This document shows positions 3,857 through 17,566 of a stretch of DNA of 64,000 bases, one piece after another. Positions within the stretch are counted from its first letter, which is position 1. Each line of letters opens with the position of its first letter. The position numbers were made by a program, and so were the translations under genes. The DNA comes from a virus (taxonomy: Duplodnaviria > Caudoviricetes), in the IMG/VR virus record IMGVR_UViG_2974674860_000001, positions 26,491 to 90,490 of that record. One strand, 5' to 3'. Below the pieces are notes generated by a model, which made no database searches, was not told the origin of the DNA, and was given only the letters and a program-made list of their open reading frames with translations.

Positions 3857-4930
3857 ATGACCACCTACGACGAACTCTATGGCCCGCCCGTCGATGTCCT
3901 GCACCCGACCGTCAAGGTCTACGCGGTCGACGACAACGAGGGCGTGCCGATTCGTCACCTCGCCGTCCACCTCACCCCAGGCGAGGGCCGCATGCTCCTG
4001 CCGCGAGGACTCAAGGGGGACAAGGGCGACGATGGCGCGCCGGCCACCGCATGGCAGATCAAGGGCGAGCGCACCACCGCCCAGCTCGCGGCGCTGACCC
4101 TCGGCGCATCCGAGAAGGGCTGGGCCTACAAGAACTCCCAGACCAACGCCCTGCACTACTGGGACGGCACCGGATGGATCGTCCTGACCGACGCCTTCGG
4201 CACCGACGGGCCGGTCGGCCCCGCAGGCTCCCTCAGCGGCGTCAATATCCAGATGAAGGCCGCCGGCACCGAGCCCGAGGCCTACCTGACCGGACCAGTC
4301 GGCAACCAGTCCCTGATCCTCATGCTGCCCGAGAAGCCCGGCCCCAAGGGCGACGCTGGCCCGGCTGCGGCCATCGCGTCGGCGAGCGACTTCGACACGA
4401 CCACGTCACCCGCAGCTGGCGACTTTCTCACCCGGCTGCCGAATGGCAAATGGGGCCCCGGGTCGAGCCCCCGCACGCGCTACTACAGCATCCCCGAGGG
4501 CAACTTCACCGACACCGGCGACCTCTGGAGCGGGCAGCGCGCCACCCTGGTCAGCCTGTCACTCGACCAGCTCACCTACTCCACGTTCCTCGAAGTGACC
4601 GGCCACATGCGCGTCGGCACCGGCATCCCGGCATCCAGCATCTCCATCGAGGTCCGCATCGGCGACGCGGCCACCGGCGAGCTGATCGCTCGCGGCTACA
4701 CCTCCTCGCGCACCGGCGAGGACGTTGTCGCCATCCACCCGCACTTCTCAACCAACGCGCAACCCAGTCGCAACGCAGCACCGGGAGGCACCGTCGGGAT
4801 CGTCCCCGCCTCGCACACCGGCACCGCAGGCACTCTCTACGTCACCGCGGTGCGCACCAGCGGTCTCGGCTCGGTCCGTGCGTTCTCCGACGACGCCCAG
4901 CTGCTCATCAAGCGACTGCCGGCGGTCTAA
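3857..4930 (+). CDS. minor tail protein
   Basis: Short collagen-like G-x-x runs (GLKGDKGDDG, GPKGDAGPA); AAGGA RBS. Confidence 0.75.
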   Translation: MTTYDELYGPPVDVLHPTVKVYAVDDNEGVPIRHLAVHLTPGEGRMLLPRGLKGDKGDDGAPATAWQIKGERTTAQLAALTLGASEKGWAYKNSQTNALHYWDGTGWIVLTDAFGTDGPVGPAGSLSGVNIQMKAAGTEPEAYLTGPVGNQSLILMLPEKPGPKGDAGPAAAIASASDFDTTTSPAAGDFLTRLPNGKWGPGSSPRTRYYSIPEGNFTDTGDLWSGQRATLVSLSLDQLTYSTFLEVTGHMRVGTGIPASSISIEVRIGDAATGELIARGYTSSRTGEDVVAIHPHFSTNAQPSRNAAPGGTVGIVPASHTGTAGTLYVTAVRTSGLGSVRAFSDDAQLLIKRLPAV

Positions 4931-4939
4931 GGGGCCCCG

Positions 4940-7900
4940 TTGAACGACAACAGCAAGAAGGCCGCCGAGGCTCTCGTCCAGCACTTCCAGGGCATGGTCG
5001 ACGGGCAGGCCGGCAACATCCAGGACCTGTTCGACTCCCTGCTCCCGGTCCAGGACTTCGTCAACGCGATCCTGGAAACACTCGGCGGCAACCCCACCGC
5101 GATGGCGACCTTCTTCGCCACGTGGGCCGAAAACCTGCCCTGGCTCAAGGACTTCGAGAACTGGGTGCCCAACATCGGTGCCGACCTCGCAGGCCTGCGC
5201 GACGCGGTCGAGGGAACCTACGTCGGCAATGACGTGGTGCTCAACGCCATCCAGCGCGCAGTCGGCGCGATCCGCTCGCTGGCCGGCGGCCTCATCGACC
5301 CGTCGCGCATCCCGCAGATCTTCCTCGGGCAGCTGTCCAACCAGCCAAGCCCCAACCTACTCAGCGGCTTTGGCGACTTCTCGGCGGCCGGCACCATCGA
5401 CGGCGGCGACGTCTGGGTCTGGGACGAATCCGAAGGCCACACCACCCCCGGCTCCGTTCGTGGCACCGCCGACGGTGAACGTCACGTCCTGACCTCCGAG
5501 CTGGTCTCGGTCAGCGAGGGGCAGAAGCTCGACCTCTCGGGCTGGGCGAAGTGGGCCCAGCCGAAGTGGCCGAACATGCTCACCTATTCGCAGGCGACGC
5601 TGGAAACCGATGAGTCCGTACTCGTTGCGACCCCCATCGCCCGGCGCCTGAACTCGAACAACGCCGTGCTCACCCGCGACAACTCGTGGTCCGACGGCGG
5701 CAACTACTCGGTCAAGCTCACCGCAGACAACAAGGCCGACACCAACTTCAACTGGGGCGGCGATGGCGTCTTCGCGCCGCCCTACAACGCCCCCGGGTCA
5801 TTCCGCATGGGCACCCAGCCGGGCCGGACATACCGCATGTGCGCGACGTTCCGGCTCACCGAGGCCATGACGTCGGCAACGACAGGGAACCGAAGCCTCG
5901 GCCTGACCGCCTGGTACACCCGCGGCCAGGGCTCCCACACCAAGGTCAACATCGGCGAGGCGGCGCCCAACGCAGCAGGCGAGTACCGCCTGGAGGGCGA
6001 CTTCACTATCCCCGCCGACGCCACGGGCGCATTCTTCCGCATCTACTTCGGCTACACCACCGGCACCATCTGGATCGACCGGATGGGCCTCTTCGACATC
6101 ACCGATTCGGTCCCGCCGGCTGGCTACTATGTCCAGCCGCACAACGGCATCGGTGACACCTACACCCTGTCGGTCATTCCGCAGTCGGGCGACATCGCCG
6201 GCGCAGAGTCCGTCATCAAGGCCATCGCCAACCCCTCAGCTTCGGGCGGATGGTCGGAGCTGAATGGCACCTACACTGTGCCCGCCGGTGTCGACGGCGT
6301 TCGCGTGCGTCTCGGGATCGAGGCGCCGGCATCGGCCGGCGTTGCATGGTTCGACGACGTCTCCCTCCGCAAGACCGCCACATCACTCCCGCAGCAGTGG
6401 GTGTCAGGTCTCGCCGAGACCCTCGGCGACCTCTGGGATGGGCTCGGCAACCTCATCGACAACCTGCTTGCCTCCCTGGGCATTCCGCCCACCGGCACCA
6501 TCGTCGATCGCATCCTCGATCTCTCCGACGAGTTCGGGGATTGGCTCGACGACACCCAGACCCAGGCCGCCAAGTTTGCCGATCTCGTCGGCGATCTCCT
6601 CGCCGACCCTGGCAAGGTGCTCGGAACACTGCCTCAGACTCTCGTCTCGGGGCTGTCGACCTCGCTGAACAGCCTGCAGTCGTTCATCCAGAACCTCCTC
6701 AACGCGATCCTCCAGGGCATCCGTGGCGTCCCCGTTGTCGGCGGCTCCATCGCCAACGTCATCGAGGACCTGACCGGGATGAACAAGGATGTCGCGGCCG
6801 CGGCAGAGTCTGCGGACGTCGCCCAGGCGCAGATCGTCACCATCCAGCAGGTGTTCGCCGTGCGCTCGAACCGCCCACTCTGGGAGGGCCTCGATCCGAC
6901 CGGGGAATCGACCTTTCCCTATACCCAGCTCGCCCAGCCTGCCGCGCATGGACACACGGGGTCCACGAACTCAACCGGCAACCACACTGGCCACGAGGGC
7001 ACCGCGAACAGCAGGGGCGCACACTCCCACGACGTCACTGTAACCAACTGGGGCACATCGGAGATTCCGGTCGCGGGATCGATGACGCCGGGCGGCTGTA
7101 TCCGCATCGAATCCCCGGTCGAGAAGCGCCAGATCACATTCCAGGCCCGGCGCAGCGGTGCTGTGTCGTCGTTCTACATCGACGTCTACCACATGGAGGA
7201 CGACGGCTCCTTCACGCTACTGCACTCCTCGGCGAACATCGCCGCCGACATCCTCACCGTCATGACCTGGCAGCAGGTCGAGATCCCGCCCACCCTCGTC
7301 GAGCTGGGCGACGTCATCATGATCCAGTTCCGCGCCAACGCAAACTGCTTCGTCGCCGGCATCCAGCTACCAGCCCCGGCGAACGCGCTCGGATTCCGGC
7401 CGTTGCAGATCGGCATGCTGCGCAACTCATCTGACGCACCCGCTGTTCTGTCACAGACCGCCGCCGACTCGGCCTACTCGGGCTACACCCCCTACATCCA
7501 GCTCGGGTCCGACGTCGGCCAGCTCAACGCAGCGCGCAACTTCTACGACAACTTCAACCGCACCATCCTGGGCTCCAACTGGGCGGCGAACTGGAGGTCG
7601 AACAGCGGGGGCGAGTACCTCACCGTCAGCGGGAACCGGCTGGTCAACCCGACCTCTGGCATGCTGCTGTACCAGCGTTCACTCGCTCTCTACACGCTGC
7701 CACTGTCCTCCGACGACGTGAGTGTCGAGTTCGACCTGACGTCCGTGAACGGCGTGGCTTCCGGTGTGATCATCTGCGCCGACAACAACGCGCAGAACTA
7801 CGTCGGCGCATTCGTTACCACCAGCGGCGGCGGCATCTGGACCAACGTCGGCGGCGTCAACGGAACCATGACCGAACGATCGACCGTCGCGGCATCCAAC

Positions 7901-11208: not shown

Positions 11209-11409
11209 ATGAAGCACATCCCCCTGCGACCACCCACGCCCGGCGAGGCCATGTCCGCGGCGATCACGCTCATCCGCCTCGCTGAGTACGAGGGCAGCTA
11301 CCAGAACGAGTCTCGCGAGTTCAGCGCGAAATACCTCGGCGAATGGGCTGACAACCGCCGGGCCGAGCTTCGAGACGAGGAGGCCGCCGGTGTCGACAAC
11401 CACGCTTGA
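11209..11409 (+). CDS. hypothetical protein
   Basis: ATG 11209 with GAGG RBS; overlaps the xseA start. Confidence 0.5.
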   Translation: MKHIPLRPPTPGEAMSAAITLIRLAEYEGSYQNESREFSAKYLGEWADNRRAELRDEEAAGVDNHA

Positions 11410-12709
11410 TACCCCGATCCGCGTCAAGGAACTCAACACCAAGATCGGTGCCTGGATCTCCCGCCTCGGCCACATCCATGTCGAAGGCCAGGTCACCCAG
11501 ATCAACCGGCGACCAGGCGCGCACACCGCATTCCTGACGCTCCGCGACCCCCAGGCGGCGGCCTCCGTGTCCGTCACTGCGTCGCCAGGGAAGATCCCGG
11601 CCGAACTCACCGACGGCGACAGCGTCGTCGTCTTCGGCAAGCCATCGTTCTGGCAGGGCCGCGGCAACCTTTCCCTGCGTGCGAGCGAGATCCACCAGGT
11701 CGGCGAGGGTGACCTCCTGCGCCGCATCGCACTCTTCCGCCAATCGCTGGCCGGCGAGGGCGCACTGCGACCCGAGTTGAAGAAGCGCCTGCCGATGCTC
11801 CCACGCCGGATCGGCCTCATCACCGGCGCAGAGTCCGCCGCCGAGCGTGACGTCCTGAGTGTCGCCAAGCAGCGATGGGCCGCCGCCGACTTCTGCGTCA
11901 TCAACACCCCTGTCCAGGGCCCGTCGACGTCCCGCGAGGTTGCCCGAGCGATCAAGGCGCTCGACGACCAGGACGACATCGACGTCATCATCATCGCCCG
12001 CGGCGGTGGCAGCGTCGAAGACCTCCTGCCCTTCTCCAGTGAGCAGATCATCCGCGCAGTGATGATGTGCGAAACCCCGGTCATCTCTGCAATCGGCCAC
12101 GAGCCCGACAATCCGGTGCTCGACGACGTCGCCGACTTCCGTGCAGCCACCCCGACCGACGCCGCGAAGAACGTCGTCCCCGACGCCATGGTCGAGGTCG
12201 CCGGCCTACTCACCGTCGGCGAGTCCCTCGCCTCGGCATTCGCTCGCAACGTCGAGCGCGAGGTCACGGGACTGCATTCCATGGAAGCCCGAGTGAACGG
12301 GCTCGGCGGTCAGATCCTCGCCCGCGAACGATCCACCTTCAACGGCTGGCGCAGTCAGTTCGACCTGACCATGGCCCACTCACTCCAGTCGGAGCGGAAC
12401 TCGCTCCTGTCGTTCTCCAATGCCATCCGCTACGCCAATCCCGGCTCGCGGATCGAGAACGAGTATGTGGCCATCGCAGCCCTTGGAGACCACCTCGAAG
12501 CAGTCTCTCCGAAGGCCGTCATGGAGCGCGGATTCGCGATCGTCACCAACGCACGAACGGGTGACGTGATCACCACTGGCAGTCAGATCTCCGGCGGCAC
12601 AAGCCTGACCATCACCTTCGCCGACGGCAGCACCAGGGACGTCATGGCACTCGCACTGCCCCACTCATCGGTGGGGATCAAACAACCCGAAGGGACCGAA
12701 GCACAGTGA
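11390..12709 (+). CDS. xseA: exodeoxyribonuclease VII large subunit
   Basis: OB fold (HVEGQVTQ...FLTLRD), RRIGLIT, DVIIIARGGGSVEDL, ISAIGHEPD, DFRAATPTDAA. Confidence 0.95.
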   Translation: MSTTTLDTPIRVKELNTKIGAWISRLGHIHVEGQVTQINRRPGAHTAFLTLRDPQAAASVSVTASPGKIPAELTDGDSVVVFGKPSFWQGRGNLSLRASEIHQVGEGDLLRRIALFRQSLAGEGALRPELKKRLPMLPRRIGLITGAESAAERDVLSVAKQRWAAADFCVINTPVQGPSTSREVARAIKALDDQDDIDVIIIARGGGSVEDLLPFSSEQIIRAVMMCETPVISAIGHEPDNPVLDDVADFRAATPTDAAKNVVPDAMVEVAGLLTVGESLASAFARNVEREVTGLHSMEARVNGLGGQILARERSTFNGWRSQFDLTMAHSLQSERNSLLSFSNAIRYANPGSRIENEYVAIAALGDHLEAVSPKAVMERGFAIVTNARTGDVITTGSQISGGTSLTITFADGSTRDVMALALPHSSVGIKQPEGTEAQ

Positions 12710-12882: not shown

Positions 12883-13181
12883 CGGCCGCCCCAACCGGCC
12901 TGAACGTCGAAGAGGCTCGTCAGCGTCTCAACGACCTGGTCTTCAACCAGCTCGACATGCACACCGTCCTCGATGTCATTGTCGAGCACAAGCGGGCACT
13001 CGACGAGATCGAGCAACTGCGACTCAGCTCCAGGTCCCGAGCCCTCGACTATGAGGACACCGTCCAGCATCTGACCCGCAAGCTCGATGAGATTGCCGAC
13101 ATCAGCCGAAGTGCACGTGGGATGGACTCGTATGGCCGTGGCGTGCAGCTCAGTCGAATCGCAGAGCTGGCGACCGTATGA
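12879..13181 (+). CDS. hypothetical coiled-coil protein
   Basis: Four-base start/stop overlaps on both sides. Confidence 0.6.
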   Translation: MTAAPTGLNVEEARQRLNDLVFNQLDMHTVLDVIVEHKRALDEIEQLRLSSRSRALDYEDTVQHLTRKLDEIADISRSARGMDSYGRGVQLSRIAELATV

Positions 13182-13573
13182 AGCGCATCCTGATCACCGG
13201 CGGCCGCGACTGGACCGACGTCACCCGAATCGGCTGGGCCCTCCGCGACCTCTGGATCGACTGGGGCGAGCCGACAGACGCAATCCTCGTTGAAGGCGAG
13301 TGTCCCCACGGCGGTGCAGACATCATCGCCCGCGACGTCTGGCTCAGCAGGGGGTACCCGGTAGAGCGTGTGCCCGCCAACTGGAAAGAACTCGGCAAGG
13401 CTGCGGGCCCGTACCGCAATCAGCTGATGGTGGACCGCGGCGCCGACATGTGCCTCGCCTTCCCGACCGCCAAGTCCCGCGGCACCTGGGACTGCGTTCG
13501 CCGAGCACGCGATGCCGGCATCCCCATTCGGATCTATCACGCCGACGGCACCTATGAAGAGGAGTACCCATGA
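13178..13573 (+). CDS. SLOG-family (YspA/DUF2493-like) protein
   Basis: ILITGGRDW, HGGAD, ANW...GKAAGPYRNQLMV, SRGTWDCV. Confidence 0.85.
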   Translation: MKRILITGGRDWTDVTRIGWALRDLWIDWGEPTDAILVEGECPHGGADIIARDVWLSRGYPVERVPANWKELGKAAGPYRNQLMVDRGADMCLAFPTAKSRGTWDCVRRARDAGIPIRIYHADGTYEEEYP

Positions 13574-15293: not shown

Positions 15294-15326
15294 GAAGGCC
15301 CCCCGTCATTGCGACGGGGGGCCTTC
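15294..15326. terminator. bidirectional hairpin between the rightward operon and the tRNA 3' end
   Basis: GAAGGCCCCCCGTC-ATTGC-GACGGGGGGCCTTC, a 14-bp perfect stem. Confidence 0.8.
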
Positions 15327-15330
15327 TGCG

Positions 15331-15641
15331 TGCCCCCTCGGAGTTTCGATCTCCGCACCCGCGGATTAACTGTCCCACTTCGACTTTCGCCGCCGCAGTG
15401 CTCTGCGTTCGTGGTCTGGACTATCCCTTGACCGTAGGCTCGCGCCCGTAGGTCCGACCCGTCTAGTCTCTACACCTTCCGCCAGGCTGGCTGCCTGGCG
15501 ACTTGGCTCGGGATTGCCAGCTGGCCGGGGCGGGCCAGGGGAGGGTTCCCCGAGTTTGAGTCGTGCCATCCGGTCGGTTTCCCGGCCGGCGCTCCTATTT
15601 GGTTGTGAAGTCCGCTGCTCTTCCGAATGAGCTAAGGGGGC
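15331..15641 (-). tRNA. tRNA-Lys(UUU) interrupted by a group I intron (exon 1 15641-15608, exon 2 15369-15331)
   Basis: Exon 1 GCCCCCT-TA-GCTC-ATTCGGAA-GAGC-A-GCGGA-CTT. Exon 2 TTAA-TCCGC-GGGTG-CGGAG-ATCGAAA-CTCCG-AGGGGGC-A. Joined, they give a 73-nt cloverleaf with loop CU-UUU-AA, a perfect 7-bp acceptor stem and A73. CCA is not encoded. Confidence 0.9.
15370..15607 (-). ncRNA. group I self-splicing intron, 238 nt, IC3/Azoarcus-like, no endonuclease ORF
   Basis: Conserved elements P (AAACTCGGGGAA), Q (GGCAATCCCGAGCCAAG), R (GAAGGTGTAGAGACTAGACGG) and S (AAGGGATAGTCCAG). P7 GACTA/TAGTC, P3 CGACTC/GGGTCG, P2 and P9 GAAA tetraloops, P5 CTGGCC/GGCCAG, P6a CGCCAGGC/GCCTGGCG. Terminal G at 15370; P1 exon CUU pairs with IGS GAG via U.G. 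Confidence 0.92.
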
Positions 15642-15648
15642 GGGTCAG

Positions 15649-15657
15649 AGACTAGCA
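15649..15657 (-). promoter_or_regulatory. extended -10 promoter for the tRNA
   Basis: TGc-TAGTCT ends 7 nt before tRNA G1. Confidence 0.45.
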
Positions 15658-15727
15658 GGTGGGCGGCGGTGCGACCCAGCCGCGGCCCTCCTGCTCTAGC
15701 CCTCAGTTCACGCACACCCACTTCGCG

Positions 15728-15925
15728 TATGCGGACTGTAAACGGACTCGGTTTCCGAAACCTGCGCTGAGCTGGGGTTTTATGGGGTGGCTCTGCGGAT
15801 TAAAAGTCCGTAGAATGGACCATGCACACGCTGCATCTTTGAGTCAAATGCGCAGGTCAGAGGCCATCATGTAGACTCAAGGTAGTCCAAGATCCCCCTT
15901 GGATAAACGGACAGATAAACGGACT
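15728..15925. mobile_element. attP: attP: core about 15793-15813 flanked by arm-type sites
   Basis: The core on the minus strand reads CTACGGACTTTTAATCCGCAG (tRNA-Lys(UUU) anticodon arm). Direct repeats TATGCGGACT 15728, TAAACGGACT 15739, TAAACGGACA 15904 and TAAACGGACT 15916 flank it. It lies just upstream of the integrase. Confidence 0.85.
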
Positions 15926-16207
15926 CGACGGACGGAGCCCCGCGATGCAGGTTCAGACCCACCTCAACCCCTCCACTCGTCGATGCCGGGCGACGGCGCT
16001 CGCCGCCGACCGCGAGCCTGTGCTCGCTGGTGCCGATCGGCCCGACCTTCCGTCCTGGATTGCGCAGCCGGCGATTGTGCGTCAATGCGGAGGGCCCGCT
16101 GGACACTCGGGGGATCACGAATCTCACTGGAATGGGAAGCCGTTTCTCTGGCCCAATTCGAGCTACTGATTCCACTCACCTCAAGATTGCATTCAGGAGA
16201 CTTAACA

Positions 16208-17566
16208 ATGGATGAAACGGGCACACGAGCGAAGCGCGGCAGCGGCGGTATTCGATACCGGGCCGACAAGGACATCTGGATCGCCAGTGAAACCGTCACG
16301 CTCAACGGGAAGAGGACGCGACTCGAAGCCACGGGCAAGACCGAGACGAAGGCCCGCGCTGCCATCGCGAAGAAGCGCAACGAGTTCATCCGCGGGAAGA
16401 AGAAGAAGGCGAGCCGAGGAACCGTCACGGAGTGGCTGAACAAGTTCACCGACGAGATCGCGATCCATGACATCCGGCCGGGCACGATGCGCTCGTACAA
16501 GAGCGTCATCAACAACCACATCATTCCGACGATCGGAGACAAGAAGCTGGCCACCCTGGAGCCCGCCGACGTGCGCACGATGCGCGACGAGATCATGCGT
16601 CGCTGTGAGGCCGCGGACAAGGCGGGAACATCCAAGCGCAAGGGTGCCGGGCCGAGCCGCGCTCGATACGCACAGACGGTCCTGTCGGTTGCGCTCGCGA
16701 GAGCCGTCCAGGATGAAGTGATTGATCGCAACGTGGCGAACAAGGAGTACGTGAAGAAGCTGCCCGCTCCCGACAAGGCAGTGGCCGCGCTCGATGCCGA
16801 TCAGGCGAAGCGGTTCCTGCGCGATGTAGCCCGCAGCGAGGGCACCAACGCATCGCGGTGGGCGTTCGCGTTCCTGACGGGCGCACGGCAGGGCGAGATC
16901 CTCGGACTGGAGATCAACCGGCTCGACTTCACCTTCGACTCGTTGAAGCTCACCAAGCAGCTCCAGATCCTGCCGAACCGCCACGGCTGTGGTGAGCAGA
17001 ATGAAGACGGGACATGGCCGTGCGGGAAGACCGCTCCCCGTGCGTGCAAAGACCGTGAGTTCGACATCTCGCCGACGTACGCCGAGCAGGTGAAGGTGCT
17101 CCACGGAAGCCTCGCCCTGGTCCCCACCAAGACGAAGATGTCGAAGCGCGACCTGCCGATGGTGGGGCCGTTGAAGAAGATCCTCCAGGCGCACCTGGAG
17201 GCCACGGCGCATATGCCCAACCCGCACGGCCTGGTGTGGCGAAACGAGGACGGTTCGCCGCTGCAGCCGCGCAGTGACTTCGATACGTGGTCGGACGCTC
17301 TGACGAAGAGCGGCTTTGATCACATCAAGCTGCACTCGTCGAGGTCGAGCACGGCCAGCATCATGAGCGACATGGGAATCGATCGCGAGGTGATCGCGGA
17401 GATCCTTGGACATACCAATCTGGAGACCACGGCTGGCTACGTTGCGGTGGGTGACAAGTTCCGGCGGGATGCGCTCGGAAAGGTCGGCGGTGCGCTGATG
17501 CTGGAGCTGTTCGGAGATGACGATGGTGACGACAACGCCCCGACGACAGAAGCCATCGGGGCGTGA
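16208..17566 (+). CDS. int: tyrosine integrase
   Basis: N-terminal arm-binding domain (RGSGGIRYR). Catalytic R (GARQGE), HSSR, LGH and TAGY. ATG 16208 with AGGAG RBS. Confidence 0.95.
   Translation: MDETGTRAKRGSGGIRYRADKDIWIASETVTLNGKRTRLEATGKTETKARAAIAKKRNEFIRGKKKKASRGTVTEWLNKFTDEIAIHDIRPGTMRSYKSVINNHIIPTIGDKKLATLEPADVRTMRDEIMRRCEAADKAGTSKRKGAGPSRARYAQTVLSVALARAVQDEVIDRNVANKEYVKKLPAPDKAVAALDADQAKRFLRDVARSEGTNASRWAFAFLTGARQGEILGLEINRLDFTFDSLKLTKQLQILPNRHGCGEQNEDGTWPCGKTAPRACKDREFDISPTYAEQVKVLHGSLALVPTKTKMSKRDLPMVGPLKKILQAHLEATAHMPNPHGLVWRNEDGSPLQPRSDFDTWSDALTKSGFDHIKLHSSRSSTASIMSDMGIDREVIAEILGHTNLETTAGYVAVGDKFRRDALGKVGGALMLELFGDDDGDDNAPTTEAIGA

Follow-up and report, generated by a model that had tools for sequence, protein, structure and literature searches.

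A group I intron splits the tRNA-Lys(UUU) gene of a phage integration module, a probable rescue tRNA of tRNA-dependent lysogeny

How a phage genome that seems to possess no tRNA gene can carry one split by a ribozyme-type intron, and why that gene should lie beside an integrase, is the question raised by a locus in the virus record IMGVR_UViG_2974674860_000001. The stretch analysed here, hereafter the window, is 64 kb long (bases 26491-90490 of the complete 90,490-bp record, 64.8% G+C). It comes from a temperate phage of Gordonia type, whose distant kin include Bantam, DatBoi, Mollymur and SpeedDemon, all phages of Gordonia terrae; across an 8-kb stretch, 31-39% could be matched at an identity of approximately 69-70%. 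Default ARAGORN returned zero tRNA genes in the window and zero in the whole record, as the original prediction, a reading made from the letters alone, had anticipated of a standard tRNA scan. With introns allowed, ARAGORN called a single gene in both window and record, tRNA-Lys(ttt) at 15641..15331 on the minus strand. The gene is composed of a 34-nt 5' exon (15608..15641; tRNA positions 1-34, ending in GGACUU), a 238-nt insert between positions 34 and 35, and a 39-nt 3' exon (15331..15369; positions 35-73, beginning with UUAAUCC), and the terminal CCA is not encoded. The 73-mer obtained by in-silico splicing was again called tRNA-Lys(ttt) and folds into a clean cloverleaf with the acceptor stem GCCCCCT/AGGGGGC, a 7-nt anticodon loop CUUUUAA, the anticodon UUU and discriminator A73; its T-loop has A54 where T54 is usual. 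The split gene, its coordinates and its cloverleaf are exactly those originally predicted, and the junction proposed after U34 is the one at which ARAGORN places the intron and at which both splice-site helices, P1 and P10, are present. We conclude that the locus holds a genuine tRNA-Lys(UUU) gene and that an IC3-type group I intron separates its U34 from U35.

The intron belongs to a tRNA-borne family, contains no open reading frame and occupies 15370..15607 on the minus strand, on which all of the following elements also lie. Its internal guide sequence UAGGAG (15592..15597) serves both splice sites: GAG pairs with the exon CUU to form P1, with U34.G as its wobble pair, and UAG pairs with UUA of the 3' exon to form the 3-bp P10. 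P2 (15567..15591) is a hairpin with a GAAA tetraloop in which 9 of 10 pairs form, the remaining one being C.A, and it displays strong covariation across the family. The 5' strand of P3 (CGACUC, 15558..15563) pairs at six of six positions with the 3' strand (GGGUCG, 15455..15460), which makes the P3/P7 pseudoknot; four of these six pairs co-vary in the family. P4 (7 bp, around the J4/5 AA), P5 (2 bp) and P5a (6 bp) fill 15507..15554 and are followed by a 9-bp P6 hairpin (15479..15501). The 5' strand of P7, GACUA (15464..15468), is invariant in 31 of 31 family members and is preceded by J6/7 within the invariant GGUGUAGAGACUAGACGG, while the 3' strand, UAGUC (15419..15423), is likewise invariant and is by homology the site of the guanosine-binding pocket. 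P8 consists of 4 + 4 bp with a GCGA loop (15430..15454). The P9 domain (15375..15414), delimited by the family model and by pairing, comprises the closing helix CCAC/GUGG and two hairpins, one of 5 bp and the other of 4 bp with a GAAA tetraloop. The terminal (omega) G, placed by ARAGORN and by pairing, is G238 of the intron (15370..15370). In all, 65 of 66 core pairs form over P2, P3, P4, P5, P5a, P6, P7, P8 and the three P9 helices. The joining regions J3/4 (AAA), J4/5 (AA), J6/7 and J8/7 equal the family consensus, and every invariant core letter of the family is kept. The group I core that the original prediction had named (P1, P10, P7, the GAAA loops of P2 and P9 and the terminal G) was therefore found in full.

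The family was defined by an alignment of 31 non-redundant tRNA introns from viral and metagenome contigs, from which the window was excluded. A P1-P10 structure was set on this alignment with P3/P7 and P10 as pseudoknots; RNAalifold, in which pseudoknots are not drawable, paired the exon GACU with a P7 strand, and the structure was therefore corrected by hand. Under this structure 93.7% of the alignment cells are paired; sliding the partners by 1-3 columns lowers this share to 31-44%. Changes on both sides were seen in 36 of 52 pairs, and the observed values were reached by 0 of 500 shuffles. From one tRNA class to another, P1 and P10 change together with the exon: P10 is AAA/UUU in Leu introns, UUA/UAG in those of Lys(UUU) and GUA/UAC in those of Thr. 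That P10 follows the exons supports the splice sites. A covariance-model search, the failure of which had been set beforehand as evidence against the intron, gave a match of 141.5 bits with the family model (15615..15366, minus strand, E about 1e-32, model positions 1-213 of 213), the only one in 64 kb on both strands. As the model was never trained on the window sequence, a full-length match of this size is not a product of chance.

Comparison with known introns places this element close to two established types. The classical tRNA-Leu(UAA) intron (Leu.3Ug), many examples of which are included in the alignment, has the same insertion site after U34, following the CUU of the loop, the same U-1/omega-G rule and the same core. 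Unlike it, the window intron resides in tRNA-Lys(UUU), with the consequence that P10 is UUA/UAG instead of AAA/UUU; it is also GC-rich, carries P5a and an extra P9 hairpin, and is found in a phage and not in a cell or plastid. The Azoarcus tRNA-Ile(CAU) intron (Ile2.5Ug) presumably shares with it a small IC3 core, the P2 and P9 GAAA loops and an identical GGUGUAGAGACUAGACGG / AUAGUCC core, and the Met/Ile-CAU-type members of our alignment (L021 and L091) have all of these features in common with it. The Azoarcus intron lies after the anticodon (36/37), whereas the window intron lies inside the anticodon and is longer. Following the naming of Williams 2020, the window intron would be 'Lys.3Ug'.

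The surroundings of the gene recall tRNA-dependent lysogeny (Guerrero-Bustamante & Hatfull 2024, mBio, PMC10865867), in which a short core lies in a host tRNA gene that is not rebuilt upon integration and the cognate phage tRNA is needed for lysogen survival. Users of this scheme in that report are BrutonGaster (tRNA-Lys-TTT, 11-bp core), OneUp and Mollymur, the last a cluster-mate of Bantam and DatBoi, and for integrases of the Fionnbharth/BrutonGaster type, to which that of the window belongs, the crossover is proposed at the CTT of the anticodon loop. In the window, a probable attP core CGGACTTTTAATCCGC of 16 nt (15795..15810, minus strand) lies on the tRNA strand about 155 nt upstream of the tRNA and is identical to positions 28-43, the anticodon arm, of the spliced product. 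The copy of CGGACTTTTAATCCGC in the tRNA gene itself is cut by the intron into 7 + 9 nt (CGGACTT and TTAATCCGC). A motif search located the arm-type repeat GTCCGTTTA once in the right arm of attP (15739..15747, minus strand) and as two tandem copies in the left arm (15904..15924, minus strand); these are three of the 6 copies of the motif in the genome. Beyond them lies the gene of a tyrosine integrase of 452 aa (16208..17566, plus strand), identified by Pfam PF00589 and PF14659 and by a gene call on the contig of a relative, which is 53-55% identical to the integrases of Bantam, BrutonGaster and OneUp. Judged from sequence, the core, the arm repeats and the adjoining integrase are laid out like an attP of lambda type. 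Neither attP flank resembles the tRNA halves (identities 10/30 and 6/27), and no tRNA was called in proxies of attL and attR assembled from the phage side only. By these two results the module appears to display every phage-side mark of tRNA-dependent lysogeny.

Intron-less alleles in related phages, the existence of which had been proposed for checking, were found at two levels of relatedness. BrutonGaster has the same layout as the window: int, GTCCGCCTA repeats, the core GAACTTTTAATCCA, to which CGGACTTTTAATCCGC is homologous in position, more repeats, an intron-less tRNA-Lys(UUU) and a hairpin. Its integrase is 53% identical to that of the window, and its tRNA is 82% identical to the window exons, the unusual AUCGA T-loop included. 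The two modules thus agree in their order, in which a short tRNA-Lys-TTT core with arm repeats on either side lies between int and the tRNA-Lys(UUU), and the tRNA is followed by a hairpin; they differ in that the BrutonGaster core matches its own tRNA over 7 nt and the window core over 16 nt, and in that the candidate rescue tRNA of the window is intron-split and hidden from standard tools. The BrutonGaster gene (NC_048169.1, L140:4100-4173) was called tRNA-Lys(ttt) by ARAGORN, and the feature table for that stretch lists no tRNA; gene 60 of the same phage, about 1.7 kb from the tRNA-Lys, is annotated 'tRNA splicing ligase'. Much nearer relatives occur in 2 public sequencing runs. They are 95-99% identical to the window on both flanks, and window positions 15338-15684 are replaced in them by 116 other letters. 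The one examined, a Logan contig of run SRR8946420 (L141:2290-2760) reached via its identical integrase, has the same arm repeats, an identical core and a whole attP that differs at 3 positions, together with an intron-less cassette (L141:2354-2427) whose tRNA-Lys(UUU) is 68% identical to the window tRNA. Identity with the window stops sharply at 15684, 43 nt upstream of the tRNA, and restarts at 15337, and these sharp breaks suggest a cassette swap instead of a simple gain or loss of the intron. That a tRNA-Lys(UUU) is kept at the spot despite the exchange fits a rescue role. The flank pattern of this intron-less relative had 0 occurrences in IMG/VR.

Starting from what was observed, namely the gene, the fold of its intron, the place of that intron in the family and an attP-like core flanked by arm repeats, we propose the following course of events, in which splicing is modelled on that of homologous introns. 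The precursor tRNA would fold so that the exon CUU pairs with the intron GAG in P1, with U.G at the cleavage site, and a free guanosine held in P7 would attack after U34. The terminal G would then occupy the same P7 pocket, the 3'-exon UUA would pair with UAG in P10, and ligation of the exons would produce the loop CUUUUAA. The integrase, for its part, would recombine the tRNA-Lys(UUU) anticodon-arm core with a putative attB in a host tRNA-Lys gene and leave that gene unrebuilt, and the phage tRNA-Lys, once spliced and presumably aminoacylated, would replace the disrupted host tRNA-Lys. Since the replacement tRNA is split by a ribozyme-type intron, survival of the lysogen would depend on ribozyme splicing. 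The tRNA-Lys(UUU) is the sole tRNA of a 90-kb genome, and its isotype is that of the attP core. We therefore consider it likely that the group I-split tRNA-Lys(UUU) functions as the rescue tRNA of an int-attP-tRNA module, with the intron a tolerated passenger by default.

Several points weigh against this proposal and have to be considered together with its rivals. One concerns the intron itself. The original prediction expected a match to Rfam RF00028 (Intron_gpI), and the window gave no gathering match; the best was a partial one of 15.4 bits, which fails the curated cut-off of 50. This, along with a single-sequence minimum free energy fold that is not unusual (z = -1.72, a measure that is uninformative for a pseudoknotted GC-rich RNA), could be taken as a sign that something other than a group I intron lies between two tRNA halves whose arrangement is degenerate or due to chance. 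Given the full-length match to the family model, the formation of all helices and the agreement with the splice-site rules, we attach next to no credence to this explanation. Only 3 of 10 clear family members pass the Intron_gpI gathering score (74.9, 63.1 and 57.3 bits). As most clear members also fail, the Rfam miss reflects a weakness of the model and not of the finding, and it was rejected as a refutation; Williams 2020 describes the Rfam seed as being without any bacterial intron and the model as weak for bacterial tRNA introns. The members that do pass tie the family to known group I introns, and so does Synechococcus phage S-CBWM1, in which the family model finds both of the psbA introns annotated as group I. 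The 7 clear tRNA-borne introns missed by Intron_gpI (L011, L021, L134, L136, L128, L013 and L125) score 141-210 bits with a subfamily model, and default annotation pipelines will miss most tRNA-borne group I introns.

The remaining points concern function. That the core equals the host tRNA and that the host gene is not rebuilt are propositions drawn from the phage side only. Moreover, Daredevil (cluster DL) was reported to integrate at tRNA-Lys-TTT, to have no phage tRNA and to form clear plaques (PMC10865867). This phage, now placed in its own genus, may be that of the window: the window is DL-like, with a tRNA-Lys attP and no tRNA by standard tools, and Daredevil did not occur among the nucleotide matches, in which its cluster-mates did, in a set that may lack near-identical records. 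Were the window indeed Daredevil, the clear plaques would suggest that the split tRNA fails to rescue lysogens in G. terrae 3612 or that some other block exists, and the 'missing' tRNA would be present but hidden by its intron. The gene could accordingly be a non-working relic, the intron not splicing in the host or the tRNA being uncharged or unexpressed, so that stable lysogens do not arise. The A54 of the T-loop in place of T54 could be counted in the same direction. We judge such a relic unlikely: all invariant core positions of the intron are intact, 65 of its 66 pairs form, the cloverleaf is clean with A73 and U35 and no decay of this kind is visible, and the A54 T-loop is common to the BrutonGaster tRNA, which is counted as a working rescue tRNA in PMC10865867. 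Improbable to a greater degree is a role in lytic growth, in which the tRNA would decode AAA/AAG or replace a host tRNA-Lys cut by a nuclease and its adjacency to int would be incidental. Lytic service is the usual explanation of phage tRNAs, and tRNA-Lys(UUU) is the classic target of PrrC-type anticodon nucleases, which are named in the reference list of PMC10865867. A single tRNA in a 90-kb genome with the isotype of the attP core is difficult to reconcile with it, however, as is the fact that relatives carry at this place the cognate tRNA of their own attB, CAT in Bantam, DatBoi and OneUp and TTT in BrutonGaster and the near relative.

Under the rescue reading, it may be asked whether the intron is a tolerated selfish passenger, the default assumption, or whether it is kept because it confers self-immunity. 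In the latter case the intron would break the copy of the attP core in the rescue gene. Were that copy whole, the phage's own integrase could use the tRNA gene, which is directly oriented at a distance of about 170 bp, in place of an attB and so remove the promoter and 5' half of the gene. Dependence of lysogeny on splicing would be a by-product. The intron junction does lie inside the core, directly after the CTT proposed as crossover in PMC10865867. The longest uninterrupted match between the anticodon arm of the (spliced) tRNA and the nearby core is 16 nt in the window and 14 nt in the metagenome contig L134, the two intron-bearing modules, versus 11 nt in the near relative, 10 nt in OneUp, 9 nt in Bantam, 9 nt in DatBoi and 7 nt in BrutonGaster, all five intron-less. 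A stem pair is flipped in intron-less relatives, 29:41 in the near relative, which has the same attP, and 31:39 in BrutonGaster. Such match lengths are to be expected if a long copy of the core does harm inside the rescue gene and either an intron or changes in the stem can do away with it. The contig L134 (RCUI01000004.1, 91 kb, positions 4780-6572) presents int, core and an intron-split tRNA-Lys(UUU) in the same order. At 5201-5214 its spliced anticodon arm recurs over 14 nt without a break, and its integrase, of P4 type (Arm-DNA-bind_3 + Phage_integrase), is 24% identical to that of the window; it appears to hold a second, independent module in an unrelated integrative element. Despite this agreement we hold a protective function to be possible but doubtful. 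Only two modules are set against five here, and there is kinship among several of the intron-less ones. In Bantam, DatBoi and OneUp the tRNA contains a match of 9-10 nt, the length of the 9-10 bp attP/attB cores published for Mollymur and OneUp (PMC10865867), indicating that a shared core is tolerated. An overlap would also be expected by coincidence, because tRNA introns (through P1/P10) and integrases of this kind each target the anticodon loop, and no such core was found nearby in 79 of the 80 other intron-split tRNAs fetched. The near-identical phage pair, one with an intron-split and the other with an intron-less cassette, offers a natural comparison for the idea that the intron protects the gene from its own integrase.

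The distribution of related introns was surveyed by means of an 18-nt core GGTGTAGAGACTAGACGG, which is present in more than 119 IMG/VR contigs. Of 120 regions around GGTGTAGAGACTAGACGG that were scanned, one is the window's own locus and was not counted; intron-split tRNA genes were found in 87 of the other 119, often inside phage tRNA arrays. These genes (among L004-L122) are mostly Leu-UAA, with CAU, Lys-CUU, Thr, Ser and Arg-UCU also represented, and some have anticodons that read stop codons (UUA, UCA). From these contig sequences, group I introns in phage tRNA genes look common in viral contigs yet unannotated. The pattern of a Lys(UUU) intron (Lys.3Ug) at the same site gave 0 matches in 185,579 species genomes and 0 in IMG/VR, and the exact 5'-exon pattern gave 0 in IMG/VR. 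Five more Lys(UUU) introns at the same site were recovered from metagenome contigs (L125, L127, L128, L134 and L136), and the closest intron is that of L134 with 76% identity over 206 model columns. A megablast of the locus against GenBank phages produced no match, the set searched being one that may leave out near-identical records. Searches with the integrase returned Bantam and OneUp only from IMG/VR, and an alignment search of genome_contigs returned 0. One of the metagenome contigs (L127:216-1311) resembles a phage tRNA array: it holds a tmRNA (128.9 bits) and a seven-tRNA run, and the group I intron that splits its Lys(UUU) gene reaches a passing score with Rfam (57.3 bits).

Group I introns are common in phages. 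A 2014 review (PMC3984707) placed all phage introns then seen in protein-coding genes. Devoto et al. 2019 (PMC6784885) stated that phage tRNA introns were unreported before theirs, which were left unclassified, and PMC10865867 makes no mention of introns in rescue tRNAs. The literature searched contained no account of a phage tRNA gene interrupted by a group I intron. The claim of novelty in the original prediction consequently holds in part: the five same-site metagenome cases take away the uniqueness of an intron in tRNA-Lys(UUU), and the absence of a published phage-tRNA group I intron from the searched literature stands. Here a ribozyme of known type is joined with a probable instance of a known lysogeny scheme, a combination undescribed in the print searched. 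The intron is clearly of ribozyme type, and the phage whose tRNA it splits has cultured close kin within the tractable Gordonia terrae / SEA-PHAGES system; if the rescue reading is true, a self-splicing RNA would be a required step in the establishment of lysogeny. As default ARAGORN and Rfam both miss this gene, statements in print that some phage of this group 'lacks' the tRNA may stem from tool blindness.

Further features of the locus were noted around the tRNA and attP. Directly 3' of the tRNA is a GC-rich 14-bp hairpin (15294..15326, minus strand), a probable terminator, which has blastn matches in DatBoi, Mollymur and Bantam; DatBoi, BrutonGaster and the near relative keep the hairpin, with letters of the stem changed. 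A sigma-70 promoter scan found no consensus; TAGTCT stands 7 nt upstream of the tRNA start, a resemblance by eye only. A 21-nt direct repeat with the core CTCTGACC occurs at 15640-15660, just upstream of the tRNA start, and at 15852-15872, in the left arm of attP, the two copies being 76% identical; CTCTGACCTGCGC is also present in the attP arm of BrutonGaster, and the repeat could be a promoter or a protein-binding site. Between attP and int, an open reading frame of 74 aa (15945..16169, plus strand), which is also supported by a gene call in a relative, stands where related phages have an excise gene. It was not labelled xis, having no Pfam match and no similarity to the DatBoi excise. The three copies of the arm motif (GTCCGYYTA) that do not flank the core are far from attP, at window positions 505, 63550 and 63605, the latter two separated by 55 nt and close to the genome's right end. 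Elsewhere in the window, 11390-12709 (plus strand) encodes a homologue of the exonuclease VII large subunit (Pfam Exonuc_VII_L, 236 bits, OB fold), and 13178-13573 (plus strand) encodes a small protein of the YAcAr/SLOG family.

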